64,000 nucleotides of DNA, taken from an uncultured Candidatus Saccharibacteria bacterium (lineage in GTDB: Bacteria > Patescibacteriota > Minisyncoccia > Phycocordibacterales > PALSA-1337). Shown piece by piece: positions 45,341 to 54,297 of the stretch. The notes below the pieces were generated by a model, which searched no databases, had not been told where the DNA came from, and saw only the letters and a list, made by a program, of their open reading frames with translations. Position numbers and translations under genes: made by a program. The first letter of the stretch is position 1. Each line of letters opens with the position of its first letter. Where the stretch lies: the NCBI GenBank assembly GCA_964416985.1, contig CAYQFS010000003.1:18594-82593 (forward strand). Reading direction: 5' to 3'.

Positions 45341-47053
45341 GTGGTGAAACATACTATTAAAGAAAAGCTCATTCTGAGCCTTCGGACGGCCGCAGAAAAG
45401 GCAGGAATTACCGATCCAAAGGTGCACCTCGAACACCCTGAGGATATTTTTCATGGGGATTACGCTACAAACCTCGCCCTGGCGTACTCAAAAGCACTAA
45501 AGACTAGCCCAAAAATCCTTGCCGAAAAGATTCTTGAAGAATTTAAAAAAGATTTGCCGAACGAAGTAGAATCAACAAGTATTGCTGGTCCTGGGTTTAT
45601 AAATATAAAACTAAAAGACAGCGTTTTCATCGAGAACGTCCTCACTATTGGTAGCGACTATGGAAAGGGAAATCAGGATATGGGAAGAAAGGTAATGGTT
45701 GAGTACACTGATCCCAATCCATTCAAAATTTTTCATATCGGTCACCTCATGGCAAACGCTATTGGGGAATCTCTTTCAAGGATAATTGAATTTTCAGGAG
45801 CGAAGGTTATTCGAGCCAATTATTTTGGTGACGTAGGACTTCATGTGGCAAAAACCATGTGGGGTATTTTGAATACTAAAGCTGATTTTCCTGATGAGTC
45901 AGAACCGCTTGTTTCGAGGATAGAATTTCTAGGAAAAATGTACGTTACCGGATCAAATGCTGAAGGCGAAAAGGAAATAAAGGAAATTGCAGCAATTAAC
46001 AAGAAGATTTTTGAGAAATCAGACGCAGAAATAAATGAGTTCTATGATCTTGGAAGAAAATGGAGCCTCGAATATTTCGAAACCATTTACAAAAAGTTGG
46101 GAACGAAATTTGATGAGTATTTTCCTGAAAGTTCTGTCGCTGGCGATGGGGTAAAAATTGTTCAGGAATTTCTTAAAAAAGGCATATTCGAGACAAGCGA
46201 AGGTGCCACCATTTTCCCGGGAGAAAAATATGGAGTTCATACCCGCGTTTTCATTAACTCTCAAGGACTTCCAACATACGAAGCAAAGGAACTCGGCCTC
46301 ACGAAGAAAAAGTTTGAGCTCTATCCTGACCTCTCAGAATCGGTCGTCGTGACTGCAAACGAGCAGAGTGATTATTTTAAAGTTCTTATACGGGCTATTG
46401 GTGCAATTTATCCTGAAATTGCCTCAAAAATGAAGCACCTGAGTCATGGGATTCTGCGGCCTTCAACTGGAAAAATGTCTTCTCGAAAGGGAAATGTTGT
46501 TTCAGCTGAGGAATTATTGAATGAATTCCAAACTCTTGTTCTCGAGAAAATGAAGGATCGTGAATGGAAAGGAAATGAAAAAGAAATGGTCGCAGAGATG
46601 GTCGCCATTGCTGCTCTCAAGTACGTTGTACTCCGCCAAGCAATCGGAGGCGATATTATATATGACAAGGAAAAAATAGTTTCATTTGAAGGGGACTCGG
46701 GTCCATATCTCCAGTATGCGGCCGTTCGCGCTGAGGCAGTTGTAAGAAAAGCTCATGATGTCGGAATTTCTGAAAAAGTTTCTTCAAAGCCGACAGAAGC
46801 TACACTACTCGAAAGAATGCTCGCTCGTTTTCCTGAAACCATTGAGCGCTCTCGCATCGAATACGCCCCTCATCACATCGTGACCTATCTCATTGAGCTT
46901 TCTTCTGCTTTCAATTCCTACTATGCCGTCAATAAAATAATTGATGAAAAAGATTCTCTTTCCTCATATCGAGTGGCTCTGACAAAAGCTTTTGTCTCGG
47001 TGATGAAAAATGGTCTTTGGGTTTTGGGTATCAAAGTGCCGGAGAGGATGTAA
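45341..47053 (+). CDS. argS: Arginyl-tRNA synthetase
   Basis: Class I HIGH motif (FHIGHLMANAIGE), ArgRS N-terminal add-1 domain, and KMSK-variant region (GKMSSRKGN). Confidence 0.9.
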   Translation: MVKHTIKEKLILSLRTAAEKAGITDPKVHLEHPEDIFHGDYATNLALAYSKALKTSPKILAEKILEEFKKDLPNEVESTSIAGPGFINIKLKDSVFIENVLTIGSDYGKGNQDMGRKVMVEYTDPNPFKIFHIGHLMANAIGESLSRIIEFSGAKVIRANYFGDVGLHVAKTMWGILNTKADFPDESEPLVSRIEFLGKMYVTGSNAEGEKEIKEIAAINKKIFEKSDAEINEFYDLGRKWSLEYFETIYKKLGTKFDEYFPESSVAGDGVKIVQEFLKKGIFETSEGATIFPGEKYGVHTRVFINSQGLPTYEAKELGLTKKKFELYPDLSESVVVTANEQSDYFKVLIRAIGAIYPEIASKMKHLSHGILRPSTGKMSSRKGNVVSAEELLNEFQTLVLEKMKDREWKGNEKEMVAEMVAIAALKYVVLRQAIGGDIIYDKEKIVSFEGDSGPYLQYAAVRAEAVVRKAHDVGISEKVSSKPTEATLLERMLARFPETIERSRIEYAPHHIVTYLIELSSAFNSYYAVNKIIDEKDSLSSYRVALTKAFVSVMKNGLWVLGIKVPERM

Positions 47054-47105
47054 AATATGTCTATTTTCATCTTTAGTATGTGATATCCGGTGTGTATCAG
47101 ATTGT

Positions 47106-47135
47106 ATTAGATAGTATTAGATAGTATTAGATAGG
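47106..47135. repeat. Tandem repeat (tattagatag)x3
   Basis: Seen directly: gtattagatagtattagatagtattagatagg. Confidence 0.6.
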
Positions 47136-47173
47136 GCAATAATCCAGTGTTCGCTGCATTTTATGGCATGCTA

Positions 47174-47203
47174 TTGACAAATTGGGTAGAGTTGGTGTAT
47201 AAT
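47174..47203 (+). promoter_or_regulatory. Near-consensus sigma70 promoter (TTGACA-18-TATAAT) upstream of the DGR target gene, followed by a long 5'-UTR hairpin (about 47232-47290)
   Basis: ttgacaaattgggtagagttggtgtataat. Downstream, an imperfect inverted repeat cttcgctgcaacag...ctccgttgtggcgaag encloses a perfect hairpin gccttaa-at-ttaaggc. Confidence 0.55.
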
Positions 47204-47333
47204 AGTAATGTAGTTCTTTGATTTGCCAGTATCTTCGCTGCAACAGAAAGCGCCTTAAATTAAGGCTTTCTCCGTTGTGGCGAAGAGCCCAACAAACTAA
47301 ACTTGTGTCCGAAAGGATACTAACCAAGAAAGG

Positions 47334-48056
47334 GTGACAACGATGAAAAATCCATCGATTGCATCAGACAACGAAGTCAGTGAAGGCCAAATCGAAACCT
47401 GTGTGACCCTAGTCACCGATGCTACGCGCAAAGGGACAGGCACAGCGCTTCGCGAACTCGCCAAGAACGGTGTTCTCACCAAAAAGAATATTGAGCGGGT
47501 GCGGGCGCGCGGCAACGAAGTGGTTGCTGAGATTACGAGAATCGTAAAGGAGAAGTTTGCCGAAATTGCCGAGAATATCGCCGGCATCGTCAAGCTCATC
47601 TCCGGCGCGGAAATTCTCGAACTCGACGAGACGGACGGGAAGGCAACCATTGCGAAAGCGAAGGATGCCTTTCCCGGCTGGATCGATCCCGACTTCAAGG
47701 AATACGGTTGCGATGTGAAGTCGGAGCCGACCAAGAAGGCACAGGTTTCCGTCCATGAGATGATCAAGGACGGGACATTCGCCCAGATCTTTAATGGCAT
47801 GGGCGATGACCTCAATAGTCTTTGTCTTACACAGCCGCAGATCATCCAATTCGTGGAGAAACACCACAAGTGGCTCCGCACGGATGGATATGCAACCTTT
47901 TTCTTATTCAAGGTTGGCGAAGAGTTCTTCGTTGCGGACGTGGGCTTCCACGTCGGGCGTCTCGAGGTCTACGTGCGCCGCTTCTCGAACGACTTCGTCT
48001 GGCGCGCCGAGGACCGTCATCGCATTGTAGTCCCGCAACTGGCACTTGCAAATTAG
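47334..48056 (+). CDS. DGR target (variable) protein; GC-rich; VR at the C-terminus
   Basis: The 3' approximately 117 bp is a mutated copy of the downstream template repeat (see VR/TR features). About 55% GC, against about 40% for neighbours. No recognisable C-type-lectin GGSW motif. Confidence 0.75.
   Translation: MTTMKNPSIASDNEVSEGQIETCVTLVTDATRKGTGTALRELAKNGVLTKKNIERVRARGNEVVAEITRIVKEKFAEIAENIAGIVKLISGAEILELDETDGKATIAKAKDAFPGWIDPDFKEYGCDVKSEPTKKAQVSVHEMIKDGTFAQIFNGMGDDLNSLCLTQPQIIQFVEKHHKWLRTDGYATFFLFKVGEEFFVADVGFHVGRLEVYVRRFSNDFVWRAEDRHRIVVPQLALAN
47925..48041 (+). repeat. DGR variable region (VR), including the 3' invariant IMH-like segment cgtcatcgcattgtagtcccg
   Basis: Aligns base for base with TR 48366..48482. 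All 20 mismatches in the alignment fall at positions that are A in the TR. Confidence 0.85.
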
Positions 48057-48057
48057 T

Positions 48058-48080
48058 CCTGAGCCTTTGGCTCTCAGTCC
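48058..48080 (+). other. GC hairpin (gagcc-ttt-ggctc) just downstream of VR/stop; candidate DGR target-recognition stem-loop
   Basis: Inverted repeat ctgagcctttggctctcag, seen directly. Position relative to the VR matches known DGR hairpin/cruciform elements. Confidence 0.45.
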
Positions 48081-48365
48081 CTCTGACCCTTGTCAAAATT
48101 TATTTTGGCAAATCAGGGGGATTTTTGTATACTGGAAAGGCACGCATGAATGTACGGTGGCTATGGCTCCCGTGCCACGCTTGTGAAAAAATACGTTCGA
48201 GAATTCTGCCGCCCGCCAGCTGGCGGGTTGCAGAAGAGTGGATGTATTTTTATCTAAACAAAAAATAATCAGTTGGTGTAGTGGACTGGAGGACTTCAAT
48301 GTCCCGAATACTATTCAATCTGTCCTGATTGGGCGGATGGTGTACTGGATGGTTCGTTGCACATT

Positions 48366-48482
48366 ATCTTCGTTGCGAACGTGAACTTCAACGACGGGCA
48401 TCTCAAGGTCAACATGAACCGCTTCTCGAACGACAACGTCTGGAACGCCGAGAACCGTCATCGCATTGTAGTCCCGAAACTG
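48366..48482 (+). repeat. DGR template repeat (TR), non-coding, rich in AAC codons in the VR frame
   Basis: atcttcgttgcgAACgtgAACttcAACgacgggcatctcAAggtcAACatgAACcgcttctcgAACgacAACgtctggAACgccgagAACcgtcatcgcattgtagtcccg. 21-nt exact match to the VR at the 3' end. Confidence 0.85.
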
Positions 48483-48497
48483 TCATTTCTCTCATCA

Positions 48498-48866
48498 TTA
48501 TTTGGTGAGAGTTTTGTTGAGTATTGATTTAGCAGTGGGACTTTGGAGGCCTTTGCGCCATCCACCAAGCATTCGCCCTATCTCTTCTAGCTTTTCCGAG
48601 AGTTCTGTATATTTGTCAGTCGGAATGAGCTTGCTCTCCCAGGCTAGCTGATAAAAGAATTTAAGAGTGTCTACCTTCGTTATGGTCCGGCCGAGCATAA
48701 CAGTCTTGGCTTCTGGTGGCAGATAAATGCAAGAGAAACTGAATTCCAAAGTATCAAGAAATAAGTCTTCAATCTTCTGACCAATACCGAGACGTTCAAC
48801 GCGCGGAAAGTTCCTATGAATGGCTAACCAAAATTGGTATGCTTCCTTTTCCTTCAAAATCACCAC
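48498..48866 (-). CDS. avd: Avd-like accessory variability determinant (four-helix-bundle / 23S rRNA intervening-sequence protein family), GTG start, opposite strand to TR/RT
   Basis: 122 aa, with the ...FP..E..G...Q.... pattern; the C-terminal EEIGRMLGGWRKGL parallels Bordetella bAvd EVGRILGSWIARV. Located between the TR and the RT. Confidence 0.7.
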   Translation of the reverse strand: MVILKEKEAYQFWLAIHRNFPRVERLGIGQKIEDLFLDTLEFSFSCIYLPPEAKTVMLGRTITKVDTLKFFYQLAWESKLIPTDKYTELSEKLEEIGRMLGGWRKGLQSPTAKSILNKTLTK

Positions 48867-48877
48867 TGGAGAATTGC

Positions 48878-48887
48878 GGGGGGGGGG
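48878..48887. repeat. Homopolymeric G10 tract between the divergent avd start and the RT start (C10 in the avd 5'-UTR)
   Basis: gaattgcggggggggggtcgtc, seen directly. It lies inside the upstream extension of the RT ORF (which would read GGG) and 12 nt upstream of the avd GTG. Confidence 0.9.
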
Positions 48888-48910
48888 TCGTCATAGTCAT
48901 TTTAATTTTT

Positions 48911-49900
48911 GTGAAAAATAAAGGGGTTGCGTACAACCATATCATATCTCTCAAAAATATCCACGAAGCGTGGCGTGAATTTGTCTCTGGTAAAAAATAT
49001 AAAACCGATGTGGCAGAATTCCTGCTCAAACTCTCGGAGAATACTTATAAGCTTCACATTGATCTAAAAAATAAAATATATGTCCACGGACCGTACGAAG
49101 CCTTCGCGGTTAATGACCCAAAGCCGCGCAGTATCCATAAAGCGAGCGTGCGGGACCGTTTACTCCACCATGCTCTCTATCGCCAACTCTACCCTTATTT
49201 TGATCAGAAATTTATTCACGATTCCTATTCTTGCCGTGACTTCAAGGGGACGCATCGGGCATTGGAGCGCTTTATGCAATTTTCTTGCAAGGTTTCAAAG
49301 AGCAATAAACGCACTTGTTGGGTATTGAAATGTGATGTTCGTAAGTTCTTTGCTTCGGTGGATCATTCAGTTCTCATGACGATACTTAAAAAGCATATTT
49401 CTGATCCTGATATTATCAATCTTGTCGGTGGGGTAGTGGAGAGTTTTAAAAGTACTGGTCCGGGAAAGGGTTTGCCACTCGGTAATCTTACTTCGCAACT
49501 TCTGGTGAATGTTTATATGAATGAATTTGATCAATACGTAAAGCATATTCTCAAACAGAAGTTTTATATTCGCTATGCTGATGATTTTGTGATTATGCAT
49601 CATGACCGCATTACATTACTAGAAGTGTTACCGAAAATTCATGCTTTTCTTGGATCGGTCCTTAAACTACAGCTTCATCCCGATAAGGTTTCTATCGAGA
49701 CAGTTTCTTCTGGCATTGATTTTCTTGGCTGGATCCATTTTCCTAATCACCGTGTGTTGCGGACCACCACAAAAAGAAGAATGTTCAAGAATTTAAAAAT
49801 GACAGAGACAAAACGTGAGACACTTCAATCGTATCTTGGACTTTTAAAACACGGCAATACCCATAAGTTACAAAACTCAATAAATAAATTTAAGACATAA
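48911..49900 (+). CDS. DGR-type reverse transcriptase (track ORF 48839..49900; probable start GTG at 48911, downstream of the G-tract)
   Basis: RT motifs 1-7, including NIHEAWREF, the DGR-type GKGLPLGNLTSQLLVNVYMNEFD and IRYADDFVI (YxDD), around 330-353 aa. No maturase or endonuclease domain, so not group II. Confidence 0.9.
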   Translation: MKNKGVAYNHIISLKNIHEAWREFVSGKKYKTDVAEFLLKLSENTYKLHIDLKNKIYVHGPYEAFAVNDPKPRSIHKASVRDRLLHHALYRQLYPYFDQKFIHDSYSCRDFKGTHRALERFMQFSCKVSKSNKRTCWVLKCDVRKFFASVDHSVLMTILKKHISDPDIINLVGGVVESFKSTGPGKGLPLGNLTSQLLVNVYMNEFDQYVKHILKQKFYIRYADDFVIMHHDRITLLEVLPKIHAFLGSVLKLQLHPDKVSIETVSSGIDFLGWIHFPNHRVLRTTTKRRMFKNLKMTETKRETLQSYLGLLKHGNTHKLQNSINKFKT

Positions 49901-49953
49901 AAAATTATCCTCTGGAACTTCCTTTTTATTTTTTTAGGAATATAATTTTCTTT

Positions 49954-50781
49954 ATGCCACAAGAAATTACTATCACTGCTCCCCATAAAGATTTCGAATC
50001 AATCAAAAAGATTGATGAGAATGGCGTGGAATACTGGACAGCAAGGGAGCTTATGCCAATACTTGGGTATTCAAAGTGGCAGAATTTTGAAATAGTCATA
50101 AAAAAGGCTCAAGAAGCTTGCGTCAATAGCCGCCAGTTTCCCCAGGATCATTTTACTGAAGCCAGTAAATTGATCAAAATGGCTAAAGATGCTGTGCGTG
50201 AAATAAACGACTATAACCTTGATAGGTATGCCTGTTATTTAATTGCCCAAAACGGAGACTCTACTAAGAAAGAAATTGCCCTTGCCCAAACATATTTTGC
50301 GGTACAAACGCGTAACCAGGAGATGTTTAATAAACTTTCTGATGATGAGAAAAGAATACAAAGACGAGAGGAAGTAACTGACAGAAATAAACATCTTTTC
50401 AGTACGGCCAAACTTGCAGGCGTCTCAAATTTTGGAAAATTCAATGATGCAGGGTATAAAGGCCTCTATACCATGCCTCTTTCTGAAATTGAGAAGAGAA
50501 AGAAGGTAAAGAAAGGAGAATTACTCGATCGTGCAGGAAGTGTAGAACTTGGAGCCAATCTTTTTAGAATTACCCAGACAGAAGACAAAATCAAGAGAGA
50601 AAATATAAAAGGAGATACAGAAGCACAAAGAACACACTTTGATGTTGGAAAGAAAGTTCGTCAGACAATGAAAGAACTTGGCGGGGAAATGCCAGAAAAT
50701 CTCAAACCAGAAAGGCATATAAAGGAAATTAGGAAGAATAACAGATTCCTCAAAAAGAAATCACAAGCGAGAATAAAATAG
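49954..50781 (+). CDS. dinD: DinD-like protein (DNA-damage-inducible protein D family)
   Basis: GVEYWTARELMPILGYSKWQNFEIVIKKAQEAC and LDRYACYLIAQNGD closely parallel E. coli DinD segments (..WSARDL..LGY..W.NF...I.KA; LTRYACYLIVQN). Confidence 0.6.
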   Translation: MPQEITITAPHKDFESIKKIDENGVEYWTARELMPILGYSKWQNFEIVIKKAQEACVNSRQFPQDHFTEASKLIKMAKDAVREINDYNLDRYACYLIAQNGDSTKKEIALAQTYFAVQTRNQEMFNKLSDDEKRIQRREEVTDRNKHLFSTAKLAGVSNFGKFNDAGYKGLYTMPLSEIEKRKKVKKGELLDRAGSVELGANLFRITQTEDKIKRENIKGDTEAQRTHFDVGKKVRQTMKELGGEMPENLKPERHIKEIRKNNRFLKKKSQARIK

Positions 50782-50796
50782 TATTTTTAGCCAAAA

Positions 50797-53700
50797 ATGC
50801 TAAAATGGCATTTACGTATGGAAAAGAGCAAGCAAGCCCAAACCGAAGAGAAAATACTGGCTTTTTGGGAAGAAAAAAAGATATTCAAGAAAACCCTCGA
50901 CAAGGAATTTCCGAAGGGCGATTTTATCTTTTATGATGGACCACCATTTGCAACAGGAGAGCCACACTATGGTCACGTCGTCCCGGGAACAATCAAAGAC
51001 ATAATTCCTCGTTATAAAACGATGAAAGGCTATCGCGTCCGCAGGCGATGGGGTTGGGACTGTCATGGATTGCCGGTAGAAAATCTCATCGAAAAAGAGC
51101 TCGGTCTTAAATCAAAAAAAGATATCCTTGACTACGGTATTGGAAAGTTTAATGCAAAGGCCCAAGAAAGCGTCATGCGGTATGCTGATGACTGGAGAAG
51201 GATCATTCCTCGCCTCGGTCGTTTTGTCGACATGGAGGATGACTATCGAACAATGGATACACCATACACCGAGTCAGTGTGGTGGGCTTTTTCTGAACTC
51301 TATAAAAAGGGATTAATTTATGAAGGATTCAAGTCAATGAATCTTTGCCCTCGCTGTGAGACAACACTTTCGAACTTTGAGGTAAGTCAGGGGTACAAGG
51401 ATATAACGGATATTTCGGTTTTTGTTACATTTGAAATAGTCGATGAGCCGGGAACTTTTCTTCTCGCATGGACGACAACCCCGTGGACTCTTCCAGGAAA
51501 TGTAGCGCTCGCAGTGAATCCTTCAATTCAATATTCAAAAATAAAAATACATAATCAGCAGTTATACGTAGCAACACCACGACTTTCTGCTGTGAAAGTA
51601 GAATATACAGTTGTCTCTGAAATTTCAGGAAAAGATCTTATCGGAAAATCATACAAACCTGTTTTCCCTTACTATTTTTCTGATCAAAAATTAAAAAATA
51701 AAGAAAATGGTTGGAAAGTTTATGGTGCCGATTTTGTAACAACGGAAGACGGAACAGGGATCGTTCATATTGCCCCAGCTTTTGGAGCCGATGATTACGA
51801 ACTTTCACTGAAGCACAATCTGCCGTTTGTTCAGCATGTTGGAACGAATGGCCAGTTCAAGGCGGAGGTTACGGATTTTGCTGGTCAGGATGTAAAACCA
51901 AAAGATTCTCCAGAAGAAAAGGACAAGCACCAAAAAGCTGATATTGAGATTATCAAATATCTTGCAGCCCACGGAACTCTTTTTGCAAAAGAAAAACTTG
52001 TACACTCATATCCGCACTGCTGGAGATGTGATACTCCACTTCTCAATTACGCAGCCTCATCATGGTTTGTAAAGGTTACTGATCTGAAGGATAAGCTCGT
52101 CAAAGAAAATAAGAAAGTGGGGTGGATTCCTCCTGAAGTTGGTGAAGGGCGGTTTGGAAATTGGCTCATGGGTGCTCGGGACTGGGCAATTTCACGTTCA
52201 CGTTTTTGGGGAGCGCCTCTGCCGGTCTGGAAAGAAGAAACAACAGGGGAATGTCATGTTCTCTCGTCGATTGCCGATCTCAAAAAATACAGTCATGCAA
52301 GAAATACCTACTACGTGAGCCGACACGGAGAAGCGGAAAATAATGTAAAGATGATCATCAGTTCTCTCAAGGAAAATCCGCATCATTTGACCGACCTTGG
52401 AAAAAAGCAGGCGAAGGAAGCGGGGCAATGGCTCAAGGATAAACATATTGATCTCATTATCACATCTCCATTTGTTAGAACAAAGGAGACGGCTGAAATC
52501 ATTGCTCAGCAGATTGGATTTGATAAAAATAAGATTGTTTTTGACGAAAGACTTCGGGAGCTTGGGGCGGGAATCTGGAACGGGAAAAACTTCCATGATT
52601 TTGTAGCGCATCTCAAAGAAGAGGATCGCTTCGAAATTGCTCCAGAGGGAGGTGAACAGTATGCTGATATAAAAAAGCGTATGGGGGACATCCTCTATGA
52701 CCTCGAGCAGAAGCATAGTGGCAAAAATATTCTTCTCGTTTCTCATGATACGCCACTTTTTCTTCTTGAGACAGTCGCCCAAGGCCTCAATCGAAAGCAG
52801 TCGATAGAACTCCGAGGTCACAAGGATCATTTTAATGAAAATGCAAAGCCTCGAAAGCTCGAATTTCATCCCTTGCCGCATAACGCTGAGTACGAAGCCG
52901 ATCTCCATCGGCCGTTCATTGACGAAATTCCTCTCATCTCCGAAAAGGGAAACAAGCTCGTGCGAATTCCCGAAGTTTTTGACTGCTGGTTTGAGTCGGG
53001 TTCAATGCCGTTTGGAGAAGCTCATTATCCATTCCAAAAATGCGATTTCAATCCTAAGCCGGGTCCATTTACAAAAATTCTCGGAAAAACTAAAGGCTAT
53101 CCTGCTGATTTTATTGCAGAAGGACTTGACCAGACTCGTGGCTGGTTTTACTCGATGATGGTCCTTGGGGTCGCTCTTTTTGGCCGATCTCCTTACAAAA
53201 AAGTTGTGGTCAATGGTCTCGTCCTTGCTGAAGATGGTCGCAAGATGTCGAAGCGTGAGAAGAATTATCCCGACCTCATGCTTATTGTAAATAAATATGG
53301 AGCTGATGCTCTCCGCTACTTCCTCATGTCATCTCCGGTCGTTCATGCTCAAGATTTTTGTTTTTCTGAGAGGGGAGTTGATGAGGTAATGAAAAAGCAC
53401 ATTGGTCGACTCAACAACGTCGTGACATTCTATGAAATGTATGCGAGTGAAGCAACCGATCTCACGATCACAAGCACCGATCCTCTCGATCTTTGGATTG
53501 TTTCTCGATTAGCAGAGCTAGCCTTAGAAGTCACACATGGTCTTGAAAAATATGAAATCGACCGAGCATCACGTCCTTTTGCAGAATTTATTGACGACCT
53601 TTCAACGTGGTATATTCGCCGTTCACGAGATCGATTTAAGAGTGAAAATGTGGAAGACAAAAATCGAGCCCTCGCTACGACTCGAAAAGTCCTTCTCGAT

Positions 53701-54297
53701 CTCTCAAAACTTCTGGCACCAATTATGCCGTTTCTTGCCGAGGATATGTACCAGCATGTGAAAGGTGAAAAGGAGAGTGTGCATCTCGAGCCGTGGCCTG
53801 AATTTAAAAGGGCTGATGCAAACATAATTGTAGACATGAAAGAGGTTCGCCGTGTCGCGTCCCTTGGCCTCGAAGCCCGCATGAAGGCAAAGATAAATGT
53901 CCGCCAGCCCCTCGCAAAGCTTTCAGTTAAATCTCCAATTCCAAAAAATCTCGCAGACATTATTAAAGATGAGGTAAATGTAAAAGAAGTTGTGACAGAT
54001 GCAGCGCTTTCGGAAGAAGTAGTACTTGATACTATCCTTACGCCTGAGCTCAGAGAAGAAGGGAATGTCCGTGAACTTCTTCGCGCAATTCAGGATCTTC
54101 GAAAAGAAAAAGGACTGACGATACAGGATCGTGCAATTTTGACAATTGATACCGATCGAAAAACTCAGGAACTTATTACAAAAAACAAAGAAGGCCTTTC
54201 ATCTGCGACGTTGCTCAAAGAAATAAAGTTTGGAAATTTGGAAGGTGAGGTAAAAATGGTGGGAGAACTCAGCTTAAAAATAGATATCGGGAAATAA
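50797..54297 (+). CDS. ileS: Isoleucyl-tRNA synthetase, type 2 (eukaryote-like), carrying an inserted ~170-aa histidine-phosphatase (PGAM-like) domain
   Basis: GPPFATGEPHYGHV (HIGH) and RKMSKREKNYPD (KMSKS), plus the CP1 editing region. The insert at about 52300-52810 is YYVSRHGEAENN...ITSPFVRTKETAEI...LLVSHDTPLF (RHGE + SHD catalytic motifs). Confidence 0.9.
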   Translation: MLKWHLRMEKSKQAQTEEKILAFWEEKKIFKKTLDKEFPKGDFIFYDGPPFATGEPHYGHVVPGTIKDIIPRYKTMKGYRVRRRWGWDCHGLPVENLIEKELGLKSKKDILDYGIGKFNAKAQESVMRYADDWRRIIPRLGRFVDMEDDYRTMDTPYTESVWWAFSELYKKGLIYEGFKSMNLCPRCETTLSNFEVSQGYKDITDISVFVTFEIVDEPGTFLLAWTTTPWTLPGNVALAVNPSIQYSKIKIHNQQLYVATPRLSAVKVEYTVVSEISGKDLIGKSYKPVFPYYFSDQKLKNKENGWKVYGADFVTTEDGTGIVHIAPAFGADDYELSLKHNLPFVQHVGTNGQFKAEVTDFAGQDVKPKDSPEEKDKHQKADIEIIKYLAAHGTLFAKEKLVHSYPHCWRCDTPLLNYAASSWFVKVTDLKDKLVKENKKVGWIPPEVGEGRFGNWLMGARDWAISRSRFWGAPLPVWKEETTGECHVLSSIADLKKYSHARNTYYVSRHGEAENNVKMIISSLKENPHHLTDLGKKQAKEAGQWLKDKHIDLIITSPFVRTKETAEIIAQQIGFDKNKIVFDERLRELGAGIWNGKNFHDFVAHLKEEDRFEIAPEGGEQYADIKKRMGDILYDLEQKHSGKNILLVSHDTPLFLLETVAQGLNRKQSIELRGHKDHFNENAKPRKLEFHPLPHNAEYEADLHRPFIDEIPLISEKGNKLVRIPEVFDCWFESGSMPFGEAHYPFQKCDFNPKPGPFTKILGKTKGYPADFIAEGLDQTRGWFYSMMVLGVALFGRSPYKKVVVNGLVLAEDGRKMSKREKNYPDLMLIVNKYGADALRYFLMSSPVVHAQDFCFSERGVDEVMKKHIGRLNNVVTFYEMYASEATDLTITSTDPLDLWIVSRLAELALEVTHGLEKYEIDRASRPFAEFIDDLSTWYIRRSRDRFKSENVEDKNRALATTRKVLLDLSKLLAPIMPFLAEDMYQHVKGEKESVHLEPWPEFKRADANIIVDMKEVRRVASLGLEARMKAKINVRQPLAKLSVKSPIPKNLADIIKDEVNVKEVVTDAALSEEVVLDTILTPELREEGNVRELLRAIQDLRKEKGLTIQDRAILTIDTDRKTQELITKNKEGLSSATLLKEIKFGNLEGEVKMVGELSLKIDIGK

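Follow-up and report, generated by a model that had tools for sequence, protein, structure and literature searches.

The window, that is, the whole stretch of 64,000 nucleotides that was analyzed, carries a complete and apparently intact diversity-generating retroelement (DGR) in which all parts are present (a target gene with a C-terminal VR, a TR, Avd, and a reverse transcriptase, RT), and the locus is very probably a chromosomal DGR that belongs to the Patescibacteria (CPR) clade and has the B3 cassette architecture. The preliminary description had recognized a complete DGR from the letters alone, and this was confirmed by the adenine-specific divergence of the repeats, the best match of the RT to chain 8ub7_A, an Avd recognized by PF22296, and the lack of a maturase or endonuclease. 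The 310-nt "non-coding" stretch before the TR, whose nature had been missed, is, judged by its covariation, a conserved structured RNA, and such a large conserved folded leader of a DGR template RNA seems not to have been described before. As a DGR, the locus is one more among thousands catalogued in Patescibacteria, and the cassette itself is ordinary for the group; the comparative work on the leader, for which the comparison set comprised ~140 related loci, matters more than the DGR itself. The features of the cassette are as follows:

47174-47203, plus strand: target-gene promoter, TTGACA-18-TATAAT, 12/12 consensus match
47210-47342, plus strand: structured 5' UTR of the target (20-locus alignment including orphan targets; covariation judged by eye only)
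47343-48056, plus strand: target (variable protein) gene, 237 aa from ATG 47343; the ORF opens at GTG 47334
47926-48041, plus strand: VR; substituted sites span 47937-48012, followed by the invariant IMH-like 3' part 48013-48041, ending CCGCAACTG
48078-48125, plus strand: hairpin and T-run after the target, fold -9.6 kcal/mol (DNA), z = -3.0; stem covaries between loci
48105-48133, plus strand: TR-RNA promoter, TTGGCA-17-TATACT after TG (extended -10); scan 10/12
48140-48366, plus strand: structured leader of the TR RNA (RNAalifold, covariance model, covariation against slid partners)
48367-48482, plus strand: TR, nine in-frame AAC codons, IMH*-like end CCGAAACTG
48489-48516, plus strand: 3' hairpin and T-run of the TR RNA, 9 bp, CTCTCATCA/TGGTGAGAG (terminator scan, z = -2.3)
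48498-48866, minus strand: avd (accessory variability determinant), 122 aa; PF22296 bAvd, 41.4 bits
48878-48887, no strand: G10 homopolymer at the divergent avd/RT junction
48911-49900, plus strand: DGR reverse transcriptase, 329 aa from GTG 48911; RVT_1, 1.8e-24

A repeat search and a scripted alignment placed VR and TR in register, ungapped, at an offset of 441 nt. Between 47926-48041 and 48367-48482 there were 17 mismatches (18 if the pair 47925/48366 is counted), comprising nine A>G, four A>C, and four to five A>T changes from TR to VR. The 20 mismatches reported from alignment by eye were a miscount; their reported confinement to TR adenines held when the computed alignment was tabulated by TR base (17/17 at A). 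Homology ended at 48041/48482, beyond which mismatches fell at TR thymines. Within the mutable part (47926-48035), all 16 mismatches were at A, which occupied 28 of the 110 positions (hypergeometric P = 4.4e-12). Of these 16 substitutions, ten changed the first and six the second base of a codon, the third base being untouched throughout, and every one of the 13 altered codons was nonsynonymous. Of the nine AAC codons that the TR holds in frame, eight were altered, and 12 of the 16 substitutions lay inside AAC codons, in agreement with the earlier remark that most changes hit the first or second A of such codons. The VR takes up the final 44 codons of the target (237 aa), in frame and without stops. 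An identical block of 21 nt (CGTCATCGCATTGTAGTCCCG, 48015-48035), also noted previously, was common to both repeats, and as expected of an IMH, 48013-48041 was unsubstituted in the VR and the TR ended in a differing IMH*. The 17th mismatch (VR C 48036, TR A 48477) distinguishes CCGCAAC in the VR from CCGAAAC in the TR; because this difference was fixed in nearly all related loci, it was not attributed to random mutagenesis. Across 24 related cassettes, 441 of 509 VR/TR mismatches fell at TR adenines, with A making up only 25% of the TRs, and a family alignment of the targets was variable exactly at the TR-AAC codons. Even cassettes whose TRs and targets are unrelated retained the RAACU end of the TR.

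The target gene follows a promoter whose ATTGACA...TATAAT was kept upstream of targets in other loci, and its 5' UTR, which matched nothing in Rfam, contains a long helix (47233-50 with 47267-88) enclosing a hairpin (47250-66) and a second hairpin at 47305-20. In the protein, a helical hairpin at the N terminus is followed by a weakly CLec-like domain at the C terminus; neither signal peptide nor transmembrane segment was evident, and the protein is probably cytoplasmic. Some 200 Patescibacteria proteins make up its family, which carries no annotation and whose C-terminal domain weakly resembles C-type lectins, and the nearest structural neighbors of the VR domain were CLec-fold and FGE-type proteins, TvpA among them. 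The family is small and soluble, with a conserved 5' UTR and anomalous GC3. Directly after the VR, in the place of a GC-rich inverted repeat or cruciform, the hairpin at 48061-73 folded no better than shuffled sequences (z = -0.33); according to Wu et al. (PMC5758913), about one-third of DGRs carry such a structure downstream of the IMH. The hairpin at 48078-48125 is likely the target-gene terminator; we read it (48078-48121) as a terminator rather than a cruciform because its upper part is AT-rich and a T-run follows. Its 3' arm and the -35 of the TR-RNA promoter overlap.

The TR lies within a transcription unit of its own, with predicted ends, consisting of an extended -10 promoter, the 230-nt leader, the TR, and a hairpin with T-run. 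The promoter element TG-TATAMT was kept in nearly all of 24 loci at a fixed distance from the AGTTGG block (mostly 133-136 nt, 143 nt in the window, and up to 160 nt in loci with a P2 insertion). The leader folds into five or more covarying helices: P1 (48152-48175) and P2 (48190-48248) precede an A-rich linker and the invariant AGUUGG (48271-48276), after which the long-range helix P3 (48276-87 with 48351-62) encloses P4 (48291-48304) and P5 (48318-48338). P3 ends 4 nt before the TR, and the 98-nt spacing from AGTTGG to the TR is fixed. RNAalifold yielded 51 pairs, 42 of them with compensatory changes; 94.4% of leader cells were paired, compared with 40-48% for slid partners, and covariation was 0.62 versus 0.11-0.17. 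Eighty distinct metagenomic sequences gave a similar picture (93% paired versus 33-41%; covariation, 0.67). The covariance model (R1) had a single match in the window, at 113 bits, and together with a sequence pattern found more than 120 further loci, whereas no Rfam family, RT-1 to RT-19 included, matched 46500-50500 at E <= 1. The leader accompanied avd and RT even where the target family differed. On the 3' side of the TR, a hairpin with covarying stems was found in all loci, including those with other targets, and is predicted to be the TR-RNA terminator and/or an Avd-binding stem-loop; Handa et al. (bioRxiv 10.1101/2023.10.23.563531) described 9-bp stem-loops just 3' of the TR in many DGRs, CPR included. 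After the 9-bp hairpin and T-run comes a variable gap of 0-60 nt and then antisense avd, so there is no room 3' of the TR for an Sp-like RNA of 140 nt.

At the divergent junction, the G10 tract stands 11 nt upstream of where avd starts, and a -10-like CATAGT (48892-97) follows it after 4 nt. A tract of at least six G was present in 88 of 99 loci (mode, 9-10), and among 23 locus pairs with near-identical flanks, 10 differed by one G. The literature searched did not describe a length-variable poly-G tract in DGRs. Phase-variable promoters governed by homopolymer tracts are known from Neisseria porA/opc and Bordetella fim. They share with the present junction a G/C homopolymer of 9-13 nt beside a -10-like box in the promoter region and a tract length that varies by one between otherwise identical loci; unlike them, the tract here is known from sequence alone, and homopolymer assembly errors could mimic its variation. 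We infer that the tract may tune or switch expression of RT or avd, and its variable length suggests that hypermutation may be switchable in minimal-genome organisms.

A mechanism can be proposed in which the extended -10 promoter (48105-48133) would give rise to a discrete RNA of ~380 nt, in which the multi-helix leader (230 nt) is followed by the TR (116 nt) and, on the 3' side, by a hairpin with U-run. RT (48911-49900) and Avd (48498-48866, encoded on the opposite strand) would bind this TR RNA and copy the TR into cDNA with misincorporation opposite adenines, and the cDNA would take the place of the VR (47926-48041), in the 3'-terminal part of the target gene. The direction of transfer would be marked by the IMH-like end, CCGCAACTG designating the VR as recipient and CCGAAACTG the TR as donor. 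Some 13-18 codons would thereby be recoded, allowing ~10^15 possible proteins, and the recoded residues would lie on the beta-hairpin/loop face of the small CLec-like domain of the 237-aa protein. The leader may have taken over roles of the Bordetella 3' spacer RNA, for example as an RNP scaffold; the P3 duplex abutting the TR could act as a polymerization stop, and the invariant AGUUG might pair for cis-priming with the TR-terminal RAACU, which is independent of coding; both partners are invariant and show no covariation. Taken as a whole, an "inside-out" template RNA for this large clade of CPR DGRs, reversed with respect to the Bordetella model, in which RNP assembly, polymerization stop, and priming all reside in the 5' leader and a hypermutable G9-11 tract in the avd/RT divergent promoter region forms a phase-variable switch or rheostat for hypermutation, is a tentative reading that we regard as possible rather than probable.

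The leader might instead stand outside the reverse-transcription machinery, either regulating in cis from the 5' side (as attenuator, riboswitch, or stability element) or being a separate small RNA that simply lies ahead of the TR, with priming by sequences 3' of the TR as in Bordetella. The conserved stem-loop just 3' of the TR, of the kind that Handa et al. report for many DGRs, speaks for this, as does the fact that binding of the leader by RT and Avd is itself deduced. We nevertheless consider it rather doubtful, since the space 3' of the TR is too short for an Sp-like RNA of 140 nt and none of the Rfam RT motifs matched, the leader directly adjoins the TR with constant spacing (98 nt from AGTTGG, with P3 4 nt off) and co-occurs with avd and RT whatever the target family, and its size and multi-helix build are closer to an RNP scaffold than to an attenuator.

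Returning to the DGR as a diversifying element, among sister loci whose TR, leader, and target flank are identical, VR differences lay at TR-A positions in 18/18, 16/17, 3/3, and 4/4 cases and in 45/48 overall. Judging by this turnover, almost exclusively at TR adenines, the DGR lineage is active, and this very copy presumably diversifies its target as well. It is unlikely that the cassette is a relic whose VR/TR differences stem from past mutagenic homing and whose target is no longer diversified. A single VR haplotype is on record for the locus, the one further copy found (L001, Logan SRR13287418) having an identical VR and a scan of JGI metagenomes for this TR/VR giving no match. The family also includes decayed members, among them L055, L069, L093, L111, and L114, with truncated RTs directly after the TR, and L016, with frameshifted RT and avd and an adenine-depleted TR. 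In the window, however, RT and avd are uninterrupted, YADD and contact residues are conserved, the TR retains nine AAC codons and the VR is in frame without stops, and promoter, leader (113 bits), and hairpin are full length; close relatives, moreover, show continuing VR turnover.

The assignment to DGRs extends to the two protein partners. The RT contains LGNLTSQ (49478-49498) and YADD (49574-49585), both read from its sequence as claimed earlier, and was matched by RVT_1. The earlier length of 330-353 aa has to be amended: the 329-aa version from GTG 48911 is the most likely, and the 353-aa ORF (ATG 48839) is disfavored because its frame runs through the non-coding poly-G junction; public gene calls include both. 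The best solved relative was chain 8ub7_A (135 bits, 2.6e-38), with group II and retron RTs at ~79 bits. We take 8ub7_A to be the Bordetella phage DGR RT (bRT), as the numbering of its residues agrees with that of the bRT residues cited in the preprint by Handa et al. F66, R74, I76, D138, Q187, and D215/D216, which are among the bRT template/dNTP-contact or catalytic residues (Handa et al., bioRxiv 10.1101/2023.10.23.563531), are conserved, and I181 is replaced by L. On profile and structure-sequence scores, then, the RT has the marks of the DGR clade (RVT_1, YxDD, [LIV]GxxxSQ, no maturase or endonuclease, and closest similarity to bRT). Avd passed the PF22296 gathering score of 40 with 41.4 bits over its full length, which upholds the claim of an Avd-like gene; NF033474 (DivGenRetAVD) scored 58 bits, under its cutoff of 80, and a PDB sequence search with Avd gave no match. 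It is extremely improbable that the RT comes from another retroelement or defense system (group II intron, retron, or DRT/Abi) and that the repeat is an ordinary partial gene duplication: the top-scoring NCBIfam model was indeed group_II_RT_mat (142 bits), with weaker matches to Drt3a, Drt2, and a retron RT, but these scores are far under the curated cutoffs (300, 200, 390, and 235), bRT leads the other solved RTs by 55 bits, an Avd gene is adjacent, and random divergence cannot give 16/16 changes on adenines, repeated in 24 loci. A group II intron was rejected on TIGR04416 (142 bits versus a cutoff of 300) and on an Rfam scan that at E <= 1 gave no RNA family of group II, and retron, DRT, and Abi systems on St85 (53 versus 235), Drt3a (73 versus 200), Drt2 (61 versus 390), and AbiA (25 versus 250). 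The profile search showed neither maturase nor endonuclease and Rfam no intron RNA, as the preliminary description had it.

The closest known systems are the CPR DGRs. In Wu et al. 2018 (PMC5758913), architecture B3, TR-(avd)-RT, accounts for 90% of their CPR DGR set, and in Roux et al. 2021 (PMC8144416), DGR clade 2 is restricted to CPR and has targets without transmembrane or known domains. Host group, gene order, and orientations agree with the present locus, as do an upstream target with C-terminal VR and without recognizable domain, signal peptide, or transmembrane segment, an avd on the opposite strand, and a chromosomal location; there is no essential difference, and the locus belongs there. 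The order target-TR-(avd)-RT with reversed avd was found in the window and in ~24 of 39 genome loci, and of 101 loci that bear the leader, 93 had avd on the minus strand. The reversed avd and the TR between target and avd stand as described, only not as a departure, this being the standard layout in CPR. Host labels of the 39 loci were mostly Paceibacterota, Taylorbacteria, Zambryskibacteria, and Moranbacteria. Some TPA records among them were labeled Saccharibacteria or Gammaproteobacteria. The neighbors of the RT gene were avd, dinD, and tRNA-synthetase genes. A structured 230-nt leader, a dedicated TR promoter and terminator, and a poly-G tract were not found in the available text of Wu 2018 and Roux 2021.

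In the CLec-fold variable proteins of other DGRs (Mtd, TvpA 2y3c, archaeal AvpA, and Thermus TaqVP), the VR forms the C-terminal strands and loops, and the VR here would do likewise. The mechanistic prototype is the BPP-1 DGR (mtd-avd-TR-brt), for which Handa et al. (bioRxiv 10.1101/2023.10.23.563531) obtained cryo-EM structures of bRT-Avd-RNA. Both systems have adenine-specific TR-to-VR transfer, an Avd, an IMH/IMH*-type difference at the repeat ends, the same catalytic and template/dNTP-contact residues (F66, R74, I76, D138, Q187, D215/216), a 9-bp stem-loop just 3' of the TR, and a duplex abutting the TR 5' end. They differ in that avd is co-oriented and upstream of the TR in BPP-1 but inverted and downstream here, that the BPP-1 target is a phage tail fiber of canonical CLec fold whereas ours is a small cellular protein whose CLec-like domain is very divergent, and that no significant cruciform directly follows the VR here. 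The functional 140-nt Sp of BPP-1, with its Avd-binding stem-loop, priming A56, stop duplex, thumb ring, and bRT-binding stem, is located 3' of the TR, and of the upstream sequence 20 nt suffice; here, by contrast, the 3' side holds only the hairpin and T-run before antisense avd, the large conserved structure lies on the 5' side, and a Bordetella-type 3' structured spacer RNA (Sp; Rfam RT-10) was not encountered, with no Rfam match. The RT-10 motif (Weinberg et al. 2017, PMC5737381) is a structured RNA between TR and RT in BPP-1-type DGRs; like our leader, it is a conserved structured RNA within the DGR template transcript, but it lies 3' rather than 5' of the TR. The Bordetella phage is the only mechanistic model, and its 3' spacer RNA is required there; since avd is inverted directly after the TR in ~90% of CPR DGRs, there is no room in these for a 3' spacer RNA on the Bordetella model. 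The covariation-supported leader is a concrete, testable candidate for where the functions of the 3' spacer went in CPR DGRs.

The cassette is a DGR of a well-documented kind, belonging to the CPR (Patescibacteria) clade with architecture B3, and consists of the following parts.

47334-48056: target gene, with the VR at its 3' end
48140-48366: leader, a structured RNA directly 5' of the TR
48367-48482: TR
48498-48866, minus strand: avd
48878-48887: G10 homopolymer between the divergent avd and RT starts
48911, plus strand: GTG, the most likely RT start
49478-49498: RT motif LGNLTSQ
49574-49585: RT motif YADD

A repeat search recovered the 3' 116-117 nt of the target ORF, ungapped, 441 nt downstream, and VR and TR were the only copies of this repeat in the window. 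Base-by-base comparison of 47926-48041 with 48367-48482 yielded 17 mismatches (18 with the pair 47925/48366 included), so that the 20 given in the preliminary description were a miscount; its claim that mismatches occur only at TR adenines held for all 17-18 when they were tabulated by TR base (A>G 9, A>C 4, A>T 4-5). Beyond the repeat limits VR/TR similarity breaks down, and the next mismatches fall on TR thymines. Within the 110 nt ahead of the terminal motif, 16/16 changes were located on the 28 adenines (hypergeometric P = 4.4e-12). Substitutions affected codon positions 1, 2 and 3 in 10, 6 and 0 cases, respectively, all 13 of the 13 changed codons were nonsynonymous, and 8/9 in-frame AAC codons of the TR were altered in the VR. 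The earlier remark was that most mismatches hit the first or second A of AAC codons; the identical 21-nt 3' block reported at the same time was recovered at 48015-48035 in both copies. The coding capacity of the TR amounts to ~10^15-10^16 protein variants. The TR terminates in CCGAAAC and the VR in CCGCAAC, an IMH*/IMH-type distinction fixed in nearly all related loci. The cruciform expected directly 3' of the VR was not significant.

The profile search that had been suggested for RT and Avd returned RVT_1 (1.8e-24) for the RT ORF and a full-length Pfam bAvd match, just over the gathering score, for avd, which also matched the NCBIfam DGR Avd model at a score under its cutoff. The closest solved chain to the RT was 8ub7_A (328 aa; 135 bits, E 2.6e-38), with group II/retron RTs weaker at ~79 bits, and none of the NCBIfam RT models, whether group II, Drt, retron or Abi, came near its cutoff. 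We infer that 8ub7 is bRT, the Bordetella phage DGR reverse transcriptase, because its numbering matches exactly the residues that the cryo-EM preprint on bRT-Avd-RNA gives (R74, I181, G182, Q187, D138, D215/216; Handa et al., bioRxiv 10.1101/2023.10.23.563531). In bRT numbering, the window RT keeps F66, R74, I76, D138, Q187 and D215/216, with I181 replaced by Leu. The YADD and GNLTSQ motifs on which a DGR RT had been proposed are present in the RT, and the DGR interpretation as a whole, with its adenine-confined mismatches, RT and Avd, is real and correct.

The two layout features previously described as departures, the reversed avd and the position of the TR, are instead the norm for Patescibacteria, because the TR-(avd)-RT core order defined as architecture B3 by Wu et al. 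2018 (PMC5758913) is exactly the same. Roux et al. 2021 (PMC8144416) describe a Patescibacteria-restricted DGR clade in whose targets transmembrane segments and other known domains are typically missing. Among one-genome-per-species contigs, 39 loci encode a target relative, and ~24 of these share the layout of the window: target, ~310-nt spacer, TR, oppositely oriented avd, then RT; in those ~24 cassettes, 441/509 VR/TR mismatches fell on TR adenines, which make up 25% of the TRs. Some loci (L019 and L024) carry two targets each, and others are orphan targets. One orphan (L002), compared with the TR of the cassette in its own MAG (L005), differed at 13 A and 3 T, and a foreign TR fitted almost equally; trans-targeting of orphan targets by a cassette elsewhere in the same MAG is plausible on this comparison. 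The window cassette is flanked by argS and dinD/ileS and is therefore chromosomal. Directly 3' of the RT, 49954-50781 encodes a full-length DinD homologue (NF008573, 322 bits, Bro-N domain), followed at 50797-54297 by an isoleucyl-tRNA synthetase ORF of 1166 aa with an apparent histidine-phosphatase/phosphoglycerate-mutase-like insert (...RHGEAENN...SPFVRTKETA..., read from the translation only).

Erosion of the DGR was also observed inside the family, with decayed cassettes at seven loci (L016, L055, L069, L093, L111, L114 and L149). In L016, frameshifts interrupt both RT and avd, and the TR is stripped of most adenines (15 A, with only 3 VR/TR mismatches); the TR of L149 has an internal deletion, and at several metagenomic loci the RT is cut down to its C-terminal third, directly 3' of the TR.

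Sequence searches with the target protein against Pfam, NCBIfam and PDB gave no match, and the named proteins among its ~203 homologues are hypothetical proteins of Patescibacteria, Paceibacterota, Taylorbacteria and Zambryskibacteria. The family alignment is conserved save for the C-terminal FFVAxVxxxxxGxLxVxVxRFSxDxVWxAxxRxRVVVPQL, in which x marks TR AAC or A-containing codons. With the family alignment as input, AlphaFold2 modelled the full target at pLDDT 89 and residues 85-240 at pLDDT 94.7 and pTM 0.91. In the prediction a helical hairpin at the N-terminus leads into an alpha/beta domain, and the VR makes up the three final strands together with their connecting loop. A Foldseek search against the PDB returned no significant match. 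The C-terminal domain may be a very divergent CLec-like scaffold, a reading that agrees with the expectation of Roux et al. 2021 (PMC8144416) that CPR VR domains yet to be characterised are novel variants of CLec.

In base composition the target gene is foreign to both its cassette and its host: mean GC3 is 0.63, vs 0.36 (RT) and 0.37 (avd), and the difference holds in 22/22 loci (the window target being scored outside the VR, at 47343-47925). Adenine-specific off-target mutagenesis as the source of the high GC3 would account for A being the most depleted base at four-fold degenerate sites (0.14 vs 0.26-0.29), yet T is also depleted and C enriched (target: A 0.14, C 0.39, G 0.26, T 0.22; RT: A 0.26, C 0.20, G 0.21, T 0.33). 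Upstream, 47174-47342 holds a perfect sigma-70 consensus promoter for the target gene and a conserved ~130-nt 5' UTR, for which no Rfam family was found; this UTR forms a long helix around a hairpin, with apparent covariation, and is kept upstream of two orphan targets (L002 and L020). Just 5' of the promoter lies a 10-nt tandem repeat, GTATTAGATA, in ~4 copies (47094-47133), which is not conserved in related loci.

The single further copy found of the window locus, on a Logan contig of 1980 nt, has the same VR, and JGI metagenome contigs scanned for exact matches to the window TR/VR with N at every adenine gave 0 hits. Among 102 related loci, 21 pairs had an identical 118-nt TR, and sister pairs were retained when the leader was also 100% identical and the 200 nt of target upstream of the VR were >= 99.5% identical.

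VR differences between sister loci
Pair; VR differences; at TR-adenine positions
L032 / L068; 18; 18
L103 / L157; 17; 16
L029 / L088; 3; 3
L056 / L118; 4; 4
L110 / L118; 4; 4

In total, 45 of 48 VR differences over the sister pairs lay at TR-adenine positions, which provides direct evidence that mutagenic homing occurs in nature for such cassettes. For the window copy the evidence of activity is indirect, through its apparent intactness.

Three results rise above the routine, namely a covariation-supported leader RNA, its implications for priming in B3 DGRs, and a poly-G tract at the avd/RT junction. The leader and poly-G findings concern the whole clade rather than the window alone, and the mechanistic roles proposed for them are hypotheses from sequence comparison and analogy. 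In an alignment of 24 cassettes over the stretch between VR and TR, conservation was strong even at 45-60% target identity. A hairpin with a T-run follows the target at 48078-48125 (z = -3.0, covarying stems); a TG-TATAMT extended -10 box is kept in nearly all loci, and an independent promoter scan identified TTGGCA-17-TATACT at 48105-48133. The geometry of the ~230 nt that lead into the TR is almost fixed: the -10 box precedes AGTTGG by mostly 133-136 nt (143 in the window, <= 160 in loci with a P2 insertion), and AGTTGG precedes the TR by 98 nt. The elements of the leader in the window are listed below.

48152-48175: helix P1
48190-48248: helix P2
48271-48276: invariant AGUUGG
48276-48287 with 48351-48362: helix P3, ending 4 nt before the TR
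48291-48304: helix P4
48318-48338: helix P5

RNAalifold predicted eight helical segments with 51 pairs in all, and compensatory double changes were seen at 42 of these pairs. Pairing extended to 94.4% of cells vs 40-48% with partners slid by 1-3 columns, the covariation score was 0.62 vs 0.11-0.17, and 0/500 shuffles reached the observed values. A covariance model built on the 3' domain of the leader only gave one match in the window (113 bits). Scanning JGI metagenomes for a 47-nt leader motif gave at least 120 additional loci; among the matches listed, the covariance model matched 100/100 metagenomic loci, 99 of them at full length, and 80 distinct metagenomic leaders had 93% of cells paired vs 33-41%, with a covariation of 0.67 vs ~0.1. 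Around the motif, again among the matches listed, avd (minus strand) was present at 93/101 loci and RT (plus strand) at 64/75 with enough sequence, while the target family of the window was near at only 68/87. Because avd and RT accompany the motif more often than the target family does, the leader appears to belong to the RT/Avd machinery and not to the target. Rfam 15 gave no RNA family at E <= 1 across 46500-50500, and no description of such a leader was found in Rfam or the searchable literature, although an earlier mention elsewhere is possible. The same leader, avd and RT also occur with unrelated TRs (e.g. ...NVNWNGDGWNLNANPLDNPNRWNAGNQVFSRN...) and non-family targets (L041, L063, L064, L077, L085, L099, L112, L115, L143, L160 and others), a pattern indicating target swapping within one RT/RNA lineage. 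At one further locus (L034, 3330-3376), the leader motif lies between two family targets with no avd/RT found nearby by tblastn (E <= 1e-3); the cassette at this locus has either diverged or decayed.

Tracts of >= 6 G were found at the avd/RT junction in 88/99 loci (mode 9-10, range 6-14), and 10/23 pairs with >= 97% identical flanks differed by one G; at one locus (L037) a run of N lies exactly at the tract. A coding frameshift switch was rejected, and a non-coding promoter or UTR element is favoured instead, because neither avd nor RT reads through from an upstream ATG in most loci. With the tract non-coding, the RT most likely starts at GTG 48911, the position homologous to ATG in L003, L005 and L006; in public data the RT gene has been called both at 329 aa and at 353 aa. 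The length variation would fit a hypermutable tract and homopolymer assembly error equally. The tract is followed, 4 nt on, by a -10-like (C/T)ATAGT box, and homopolymer-tract promoters exist in Neisseria and Bordetella. By analogy, the poly-G tract could switch or tune expression of RT and/or avd as a phase-variable promoter element.

On the 3' side of the TR, a 9-bp hairpin with a T-run (48489-48516; covarying stems, z = -2.3) starts ten nt after the TR-end motif and was called a terminator by a terminator scan; a variable gap of 0-60 nt separates it from the 3' end of the opposite-strand avd. With promoter, leader, TR, and hairpin plus T-run in series, these elements are predicted to form one self-contained promoter-to-terminator unit of ~380 nt. 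Among the matches listed, 21 loci have the same leader, avd and RT with unrelated TRs and targets, and in most of the intact ones the TR still finishes in G(A/C)AAC(T), with the conserved hairpin following after 8-12 nt. This end is complementary to the invariant AGUU(G) of the leader and makes a candidate 4-5-bp primer:template duplex; AGUUG and RAACU are both invariant across loci, hence there is no covariation signal either way.

In the Bordetella DGR (Handa et al., bioRxiv 10.1101/2023.10.23.563531), the functional RNA lies 3' of the TR as a spacer of 140 nt. This spacer contains an Avd-binding stem-loop, RT-binding elements, the priming A56, for which four base pairs with TR 118-121 are essential, and a stop duplex formed with the 11 nt just 5' of the TR; only 20 nt upstream of the TR are required. 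The survey of other DGRs in that study was limited to 40 nt on the 5' and 100 nt on the 3' side of the TR. The functional RNA of Bordetella lies 3' of the TR, whereas in the window and related cassettes the large conserved structure lies 5' of it. This difference suggests that most functions of the Bordetella spacer have moved to the 5' leader in B3 cassettes, where P3, abutting the TR, would be the analogue of the stop duplex, and the hairpin 3' of the TR that of the Avd-binding stem-loop.
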